DNA from: Candidatus Fimivivens faecavium
GTDB lineage: Bacteria > Bacillota > Clostridia > Oscillospirales > Ruminococcaceae
Reading direction: 5' to 3'
Assembly: GCA_018716105.1 (NCBI GenBank)
Contig: DVKH01000012.1
Span: 1,225 to 65,224, forward strand
DNA: 64,000 nt
This document shows positions 19,620 to 19,849 of the stretch, in pieces. Made by a program: the position numbers and the translations under genes. Under the pieces are notes generated by a model, which was not told the origin of the DNA, made no database searches, and saw nothing but the letters and a program-made list of their open reading frames with translations. Position 1 is the stretch's first letter. Each line of letters opens with the position of its first letter.

Positions 19620-19636
19620 TGCCTTCCTCCTTTGGC

Positions 19637-19674
19637 GCGCCGGCCGATAAAAAACGCCCCGCGCCGGAATCTTG
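19637..19674 (-). terminator. intrinsic terminator inside the 5' leader of the hyd operon (attenuator)
   Basis: Minus-strand RNA CGCCCUGUGCC-AAGAUUCC-GGCGCGGGGCG forms an 11-bp stem (two G-U pairs) followed by UUUUUUAU. It ends about 20 nt before the RBS/ATG of the regulator gene. Confidence 0.65.
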
Positions 19675-19820
19675 GCACAGGGCGAAACCAACGGCTTGGA
19701 TCAGCCGTCTTCTTCATTTGTCGAACCCTCTTCCCGCTCGGTGGCCCTTCCGGTCAGAGGCGCTCCGCCGTATGCCGCCATTCCGGTTGGGATGCGCCTT
19801 CCGGTCCGGCTTTCACGCTC

Positions 19821-19849
19821 AGTATAACGCAATCCGGAGGACAGTGCAA
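19821..19849 (-). promoter_or_regulatory. promoter TTGCAC-17-TATACT for the hyd operon leader
   Basis: Minus-strand hexamers (plus-strand GTGCAA 19844-19849, AGTATA 19821-19826). Confidence 0.45.

Follow-up and report, generated by a model that had tools for sequence, protein, structure and literature searches.

A covarying dyad hairpin, present in two tandem copies, in the leader of a TM1266-hydE-hydG-hydF operon of Candidatus Fimivivens faecavium

How is the synthesis of the proteins that assemble the H-cluster of [FeFe]-hydrogenase controlled? The H-cluster is built by HydE, HydG and HydF, costly maturases of the radical S-adenosylmethionine (SAM) and GTPase types. To our knowledge, the control of their synthesis is essentially undescribed, and the function of the TM1266 family, for which a structure has been solved, is not established. 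The question is raised by a stretch of 64,000 nucleotides (nt) of the Candidatus Fimivivens faecavium genome (contig DVKH01000012.1, positions 1,225 to 65,224; the whole stretch is referred to as the window and all coordinates are given within it), in which a leader of 195 nt (about 19814 to 19620, minus strand) separates a promoter from an operon composed of a TM1266-family gene, hydE, hydG and hydF. This leader was found to contain two tandem copies of an uncatalogued hairpin motif, followed by an intrinsic terminator. That this element, which occurs twice in the leader, is a genuine and conserved attenuator RNA acting in cis is in our view hardly in doubt.

The first-pass annotation of this locus had pointed to a duplicated 10-mer in the leader, and GACCGGAAGG does occur at 19806-19797 and 19755-19746, 51 nt apart. 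The 10-mer, composed of GA, a helix strand designated P2 (CCGG), AA and GG, is the 5′ half-site common to two tandem copies of one hairpin of ~41 nt. Copy a (19774-19813, minus strand; AAAG-CCG-GA-CCGG-AA-GGC(GCAU)CCC-AA-CCGG-AA-UGG-CGGC) contains the helices P1 (GCCG/UGGC), P2 (CCGG/CCGG) and P3 (GG/CC), and folds alone at -14.2 kcal/mol. Copy b (19725-19762, minus strand; CGCC-UCU-GA-CCGG-AA-GG(GCCA)CC-GA-GCGG-GA-AGA-GGGU) folds at -18.1 kcal/mol; its P1 can be extended to CCUCU/AGAGG, and its P2 includes one G-G mismatch. Both copies fit a common architecture (P1, GA/RA loop, P2, RA/GA loop, P3), and an RNA initiated by the promoter (19849-19821) would have the two hairpins at its very start. 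Since the copies differ outside the 10-mer, its identity is due to the conservation of its positions and to a P2 that the copies have in common, rather than to recent duplication. In copy a, CGGA/AAUGG replaces CUGA/AAAGG, a change also present in a relative (locus L079), by which a U-A pair of P1 becomes G-U and pairing is kept.

In searches of the leader against the genomes of relatives and the source genome itself, DNA similarity was limited to short GC-rich chance matches; as far as the sequences tell, the element is conserved in structure and not at the level of BLAST. The sample consisted of 151 genomes of the source genome's family, 73 of which carry TM1266, and the upstream regions of these 73 were read. 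Most of them contain a promoter, then the recurring pattern yCUGA-N3-5-AAGG...GA...GAAAGGC, and then a hairpin with a T run. The hairpin model derived from them by hand, yCU-GA-[4 bp]-RA-[2-4 bp hairpin]-GA-[4 bp]-RA-AGR (about 41 nt; bp, base pairs), is built of P1 (yCU/AGR), P2 (4 bp) and P3 (2-4 bp), whose terminal loop varies, with two 2x2 purine loops (GA opposite RA) between the helices. Model R1, based on a seed of nine instances (three short terminal loops were N-padded so that MAFFT kept the columns), gave 53 matches in 70 loci, mostly outside the seed.

The pairing of this model is well reflected in base changes. In an alignment of 33 family instances (A5), 90.5% of the cells pair, compared to 62.9±1.8% after shuffling, and 96 cells show double changes, compared to 26; compensatory changes occur at all 10 pairs, and slid registers pair at only 28-50%. 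An independent set of 80 named loci yielded 55 matches in 48 loci with model R2 (54 of the 55 on the strand of the gene, 53 within about 320 nt upstream), and a sensitive pass added eight further loci. Here 90.3% of the cells are paired (64.1% after shuffling), with 153 double changes against 38. Thus, the comparison of TM1266 and hyd upstream regions that the first-pass annotation had proposed revealed a covarying hairpin shared by relatives and followed by a terminator.

One half-site, yCUGA-N4-RAAGR, is read on either strand of the hairpin. Position frequencies in 88 instances are similar at equivalent places: G8 83% and G27 82%, A9 100% and A28 88%, R14 A62/G33 and R33 A60/G36, and A15 and A34 99% each. 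The half-site matrices correlate with r = 0.95, and shifted registers give 0.25 or less. Since both half-sites match, the hairpin is a dyad, with P1 and P3 as mirror images of each other and likewise the GA/RA and RA/GA loops. A kink-turn was considered and rejected: both internal loops are symmetric 2x2 loops (G8 A9 opposite R33 A34; R14 A15 opposite G27 A28), and the consensus contains no 3-nt bulge. Most leaders contain a single copy of the motif. Tandem copies, 7-13 nt apart, are also frequent and were found in 7 of the 48 named loci, in several family loci and in Victivallis vadensis DSM 14823, an isolate (Lentisphaerota) which is the only occurrence counted outside the phylum. Both copies in the window use the self-complementary P2 CCGG, and for this reason an alternative pairing of the copy a 3′ half with the copy b 5′ half would be possible (CCC/GGG, AA-AA, CCGG/CCGG). 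In other tandem leaders the two copies differ in P2.

The two copies of the window were recovered by a model that had not been built from them. R3, constructed only from the 55 named-genome instances and therefore without this genome, gave copies a and b as its top two matches in the 64-kb window (both strands, filters off), with 21.5 bits (E 0.005) and 16.6 bits (E 0.11, marginal alone), respectively; the next best match reached 12.6 bits. R1 scored copy a, which was in its seed, at 31.1 bits and copy b at 27.3 bits, and R2 scored copy b at 25.6 bits in a whole-genome search. Both copies are found 106-194 nt ahead of the start codon of the TM1266 gene, on the sense strand and with a terminator downstream, as in the rest of the motif family. 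Judged by these scores and positions, they are genuine but divergent members. The whole-genome model search placed the motif of the source genome at this leader only, and a weak match at 44173-44222, regarded as a possible second regulon member in the window, lies inside a peptide-deformylase-like open reading frame (ORF) and was dismissed as a false positive.

Searches of Rfam 15, with its SAM, cobalamin, T-box, PyrR-site and other riboswitch and leader families, gave no match over the leader, whether the window was scanned at gathering score, the region 19550-20050 at E up to 10, or 20 leaders of relatives at E up to 1. A literature search (subscription journals lay outside its scope) found no description of TM1266 function or of an RNA element preceding hyd maturase genes. 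This catalogue result, together with the conserved covarying hairpin and the terminator, supports the earlier suggestion of an attenuator or riboswitch layout of no known class.

The hairpins are placed between signals for the initiation and termination of transcription, in a divergent intergenic region of 354 nt upstream of the TM1266-family gene. The putative sigma-70-type promoter (19821-19849, minus strand), composed of TTGCAC (19849-19844), a 17-nt spacer and TATACT (19826-19821), had been proposed in the first-pass annotation and was confirmed by reading; relatives likewise have a promoter at the equivalent place, directly ahead of the motif. A consensus scan did not list it because its -35 hexamer matches the consensus at only 3 of 6 positions (8 of 12 overall, below the threshold). 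From its position, the transcription start is predicted at ~19814. Copy b is followed by a spacer hairpin (19691-19708, minus strand; ACGGCU-GAUCCA-AGCCGU), observed both in the sequence and in folds, in a stretch that varies in length and sequence among relatives. The intrinsic terminator (19649-19684, minus strand), predicted from sequence by a terminator scan, combines a G+C-rich stem-loop with a U tract (UUUUUUAU): an 11-bp stem (CGCCCUGUGCC/GGCGCGGGGCG, 19684-19674 with 19665-19655), 9 of whose pairs are G-C, encloses an 8-nt loop and is followed by U6 (19654-19649). Folded from 19699, it has an energy of -25 kcal/mol. The 11-bp stem had thus been recognized correctly in the first-pass annotation, which placed it at 19637-19674, shifted by 10-17 nt. 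The end of the terminator is separated by 15 nt from the ribosome-binding site of the TM1266-family gene (AAAGGAGGAAGG, 19622-19633, minus strand).

The folding energy of the whole leader is 3.5 standard deviations better than that of shuffled sequences. In its minimum-energy fold copy a is paired with the terminator region; this fold was not accepted as native, because comparative support for it is missing. The “several GC helices” noted earlier in the leader are partly the two conserved hairpins. One of those named, ACGGCU/AGCCGU, is the spacer hairpin at 19708-19691, and the other, GGCGC...GCGCC, was dropped, since it lacks comparative support and cannot coexist with the covarying hairpins. 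Attenuation by a leader peptide was also rejected: an AUG at 19781 opens a frame of 26 codons, but it has no Shine-Dalgarno sequence (SD) and is not conserved, since it stems from AAUGG, the form that the conserved AAAGG takes in this genome.

The position of the motif relative to expression signals in relatives points to the way in which it may act. Downstream of the motif, ~24 of 30 family leaders and all 34 named leaders have a hairpin that resembles a terminator and has a T run, so that the terminator, on whose conservation the earlier reading had been made to depend, is kept as a feature. In 21 of the 34 named leaders the best partner of the terminator 5′ arm overlaps the 3′ tail of the motif (31% expected, p = 1.8e-4), the overlap often beginning exactly at AGGC; in the first (family) set this was the case in 10 of 17, and in one subgroup the motif tail GAUGCG is a literal repeat of the terminator 3′ arm. 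The motif is also found directly before hydE, hydG and hydF, with a terminator of its own in G167, G131 and L050. In G086 and G167 the motif tail AAAGAAAGGA is itself the SD, 8-10 nt ahead of AUG, the SD-overlapping copies standing before hydG. Taken together, the terminator and SD layouts imply that a stabilised hairpin would turn expression off.

In the window itself, the best duplex partner of the terminator 5′ arm is the tail of copy a with the adjoining linker (CGGCAUACGGCGG, 19765-19777, minus strand), a candidate antiterminator 5′ strand. The duplex of 19777-19765 with this arm has a predicted energy of -16.6 kcal/mol (z = -0.6 compared to shuffles). In co-transcriptional folds of leader prefixes both hairpins form, and the pairing of 19777-19765 with the terminator 5′ arm is also seen. 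When the hairpins are enforced, the terminator is kept (-81.3 kcal/mol); in the unconstrained optimum (-85.1 kcal/mol) copy a is unfolded and the terminator destroyed. Because the duplex is not significant in this GC-rich context, the switch logic of the window was taken from the motif family.

The motif was found to be associated with TM1266. All 30 motif-bearing genomes of the family sample encode TM1266 (carriers 73/151; Fisher test, 7e-12), as do all 15 in a phylum sample of 401 genomes (carriers 190/401; Fisher test, 1e-5); the two thus occur together in 45 of 45 motif-bearing genomes, at a TM1266 prevalence of 47-48%. HydG was detected above cut-off in 66 family genomes, ten of which lack TM1266. 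At these ten loci (79 kb around hydG, filters off) no motif match exceeded 14.6 bits, and among the hydG-bearing genomes the motif is present in 23 of 56 with TM1266 and in 0 of 10 without it (p = 0.011). Copies preceding hydE, hydG or hydF were found only in genomes that also encode TM1266. In G131, the hydG copy of the motif and the TM1266 gene are located on different contigs, which fits a trans-acting factor.

The TM1266-family gene of the window (19356-19619, minus strand; start codon ATG, 19619-19617) is the first behind the leader and encodes 87 amino acids (aa). Its product, annotated as “putative iron-only hydrogenase system regulator”, matches TIGR03959 (115 bits, cut-off 60.8), PF21699 (110 bits, compared to 27) and PDB entry 2NZC (E 1.5e-13), and contains no DNA-binding domain. 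The AlphaFold2 model (predicted local distance difference test score 92) has a beta-alpha-beta-beta-alpha-beta, NikR-C/ACT-like fold; the nearest structures are 2NZC (TM1266, four chains; TM-score 0.87-0.94), the tetramerising C-terminal domain of NikR (~0.8; 2y3y, 1q5y), which has the same order of elements, and then the ACT subunit IlvN (0.65), which also shares it. NikR-C and ACT domains are ligand- or metal-sensing oligomerisation modules. Unlike TM1266, NikR also has a ribbon-helix-helix DNA-binding domain, and its nickel ligands are not conserved in the TM1266 family, in which only His26 is nearly invariant. We know of no nucleic-acid binding by the NikR-C domain alone.

We propose that the leader is an attenuator which is switched off when its hairpins are held by oligomeric TM1266, and give about even chances to this whole chain, including TM1266 as the binder. 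The protein is the candidate favoured by the co-occurrence, the motif-free hydG loci without TM1266, the dyad symmetry, the tandem copies and the fold. In this scheme, when the hairpins are free, the hairpin 3′ tail and the nucleotides that follow it (here 19777-19765) would pair with the terminator 5′ arm (19684-19674), and the resulting antiterminator would allow read-through into the maturase genes. A factor clamping the hairpins would withhold the tail, so that the terminator could form and transcription would stop at 19654-19649. In relatives whose hairpin abuts the start codon, where the tail serves as SD, binding would block translation instead. A symmetric dimer of the candidate factor, the first product of the operon, might bind each hairpin, or perhaps a tetramer might span the tandem pair, and a small-molecule co-repressor may be required; the outcome would be negative autoregulation of H-cluster maturase synthesis. 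With more reserve, its chances appearing to us a little short of even, we suggest the wider proposal that TM1266 proteins may form a new RNA-binding attenuation family on the NikR-C/ACT fold, with a dimer per dyad hairpin and a tetramer bridging tandem pairs, in which a small ligand would report supply of or demand for H-cluster precursors, providing a dedicated feedback switch across several phyla. The TM1266-like regulator had been among the effectors named in the first-pass annotation; to name SAM or iron, also listed there, as the effector would be pure speculation.

Several observations weigh against this proposal. The antiterminator duplex of the window is no better than those of shuffled sequences of this GC-rich leader, and it uses copy a, not the terminator-proximal copy b; moreover, both copies are weak under the independent model R3 (21.5 and 16.6 bits). 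The pair counts of both sets come from alignments fitted to the model, a circumstance that favours the structure. A test for a symmetric binder gave no covariation between R14 and R33 of the two half-sites (odds ratio 1.08). The TM1266-family protein is only slightly basic, and no RNA-binding member of the NikR-C/ACT fold is known to us. Its co-occurrence with the motif is partly trivial, because the motif usually lies directly ahead of that gene, and it is confounded by phylogeny (shared ancestry). Finally, a variant hairpin with GG/UU pairs does not cleanly follow one protein clade.

The same leader architecture might be explained without a role of TM1266 as the binder. The hairpin could serve as the aptamer in a small riboswitch of a new class, in which a metabolite or ion related to H-cluster assembly or redox state would occupy the purine loops (one per loop or hairpin, cooperatively in the tandem), the stabilised hairpin again switching off transcription or translation, and TM1266 being merely the first regulated gene. 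The location of the conserved nucleotides in internal loops with covarying helices on either side suits an aptamer, as does the use of two expression platforms (terminator and SD), typical of riboswitches; tandem aptamers are known in the glycine and guanidine-II classes, the hairpins fold stably without any factor, and the NikR-C/ACT fold offers no RNA-binding precedent. Yet the near-perfect two-fold symmetry (r = 0.95) suggests a symmetric macromolecular partner, and TM1266 is encoded in 45/45 motif-bearing genomes, and the motif is present in 0/10 of the hydG loci without TM1266. The data point to no candidate ligand, and a protein annotated as a regulator and devoid of a DNA-binding domain would be left unexplained. 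We regard a riboswitch as the main and a serious rival of the TM1266 scheme, if the less likely of the two.

Proteins commonly recognise tandem sheared G-A loops, and the choice of TM1266 as the binder is itself indirect, so that the hairpin might instead be bound by a general RNA-binding protein for such loops or by a hyd product such as HydF. We consider another trans factor of this kind improbable. A general factor is difficult to reconcile with a motif found only beside hyd/TM1266 genes, and once in its own genome; the loops are symmetric 2x2 loops without the 3-nt bulge of a K-turn, and genomes that have hydG but not TM1266 are also devoid of the motif. Still less probable, to the point of being very doubtful, is a constitutive, unregulated structure, e.g. 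an RNA-stability or processing element whose leaky terminator sets the level of expression. Such a view is compatible with the thermodynamics of the window, where hairpins and terminator can coexist and the antiterminator signal is not significant, but the conservation of A9, A15 and A34 at 99-100% across distant genomes exceeds what a stability hairpin needs, the complementarity of tail and terminator is significant across genomes, and the motif is alternatively used with SD overlap.

The proposed control by TM1266 is best compared with that exerted by PyrR on the pyr operon of Bacillus subtilis (RF00515). In both cases (i) a small leader hairpin contains a purine-rich internal loop, (ii) the bound hairpin withholds part of an antiterminator (in the case of TM1266, according to our scheme), so that a downstream intrinsic terminator forms, and (iii) the protein, here the candidate binder, is encoded by the first gene of the operon and the site is repeated before later genes. 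PyrR needs a small-molecule co-repressor, as proposed to be possible for TM1266. The two hairpins are not similar in sequence or model (Rfam gave no hit even at an E value of up to 10), the one described here being two-fold symmetric, and the proteins differ in fold (phosphoribosyltransferase versus NikR-C/ACT-like); a PyrR-type mode of binding is what we infer for TM1266. HutP (hut) and TRAP (trp) of Bacillus are likewise small oligomeric proteins, activated by amino acids, which act on repeated short leader RNA elements to decide between terminator and antiterminator. The hutP gene is the first of its operon and is followed by the regulated terminator, an arrangement also seen in L050, where the motif follows the TM1266 gene. 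However, the RNA targets of HutP and TRAP are single-stranded triplet repeats (UAG and GAG) instead of a structured dyad hairpin, HutP acts as an antiterminator that switches expression on when bound, in contrast to the OFF state suggested here, and the folds are unrelated.

Among riboswitches, the paired guanidine-II (mini-ykkC) hairpins and the tandem glycine aptamers resemble the present element in being very small, paired a few nt apart, and coupled to a terminator or to SD occlusion. Guanidine-II hairpins dimerise loop-to-loop through a conserved ACGR tetraloop, whereas the hairpin described here has a variable terminal loop and its conserved bases in two internal loops; it also differs from both classes in that it has no match in Rfam and that most leaders contain one copy.

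A conserved leader switch preceding hyd genes in many anaerobes (among them Clostridia from gut and rumen and at least one isolate of the Lentisphaerota) would make both the control of the maturases and the function of TM1266 directly testable, since binding, termination and structure could all be studied with no more than a 41-nt RNA and an 87-aa protein. Should TM1266 bind the hairpin, an RNA-binding role would be added to the NikR-C/ACT fold; should a metabolite bind it, riboswitches would gain a new class, one that reports on the assembly of the H-cluster. Either outcome would be relevant to the engineering of hydrogen production and to the annotation of thousands of genomes.

Some leaders depart from the canonical hairpin. 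Upstream of the TM1266 genes of L035, L037, L039, L048 and L051 a variant UCGGG-[UUGC]-AA-[GGAA..UUCC]-GA-[GCAA]-UUGGA was observed, in which G-U/G-U pairs replace the outer GA/AA loop. In these five loci the GG/UU hairpin accompanies TM1266 proteins ending in VKAAISK(G/H/K), and could with them be a co-evolving subclass, but related proteins of L045 and L047 occur with near-canonical hairpins. A further group (L106, L107, L108, L118, L130, L164, L168, the second copy of L105, L140 and L038) has conserved, non-complementary flanks, UCGU(U/A)CUGA ... (U/G)AAGGCGGU, with GGGUUNGUCCC as P3; these flanks lie outside what the three-helix model explains. Directly past the TM1266 gene, two good motif matches on the other strand (L116:943-983 and L132:943-984, minus strand) may serve a convergent gene. 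The leaders of L174 (“Prevotella sp.” metagenome-assembled genome, MAG) and L114 (“Bacteroidaceae”) are identical or nearly so over the 41-nt motif to the Clostridia loci L053 and L122; these two short contigs are probably mis-binned, and MAG labels therefore overstate the phylogenetic spread of the motif.

The composition of the operon, read in the first-pass annotation as regulator-hydE-hydG-hydF starting from 19619, was corroborated by NCBIfam, all four products scoring above the curated cut-offs. On the minus strand, hydE (18338-19423 as the maximal ORF, with the true start probably near 19340) matches TIGR03956 (298 bits, cut-off 254.6), hydG (16899-18311) matches TIGR03955 (879 bits, residues 173-641 of a long ORF) and hydF (15693-16886), the last gene of the operon, matches TIGR03918 (535 bits). 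A gap of 680 nt separates hydF from leuA (13481-15013, minus strand; HMGL-like and LeuA_dimer domain matches), which has its own promoter (TTGACA-18-TATCAT at 15368-15339, 11 of 12 consensus positions) and a T-box leader (15060-15321, minus strand; 87.2 bits, E 1.9e-19). The latter was missed in the window-wide scan because its score is just under the Rfam gathering score of 93.

Divergently from the hyd promoter, the region 19974-20652 (plus strand) encodes only an N-terminal fragment (129 aa) of a P-loop ATPase of the PRK06851 type (family length ~360 aa), and the next ORF lies in another frame and has no Pfam match; to judge from the sequence, a frameshift may have made this gene a pseudogene. 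A DtxR/MntR-type iron-dependent repressor (Fe_dep_repress and Fe_dep_repr_C domains) is encoded at 20899-21276 (plus strand), 1.3 kb from the hyd maturase operon.

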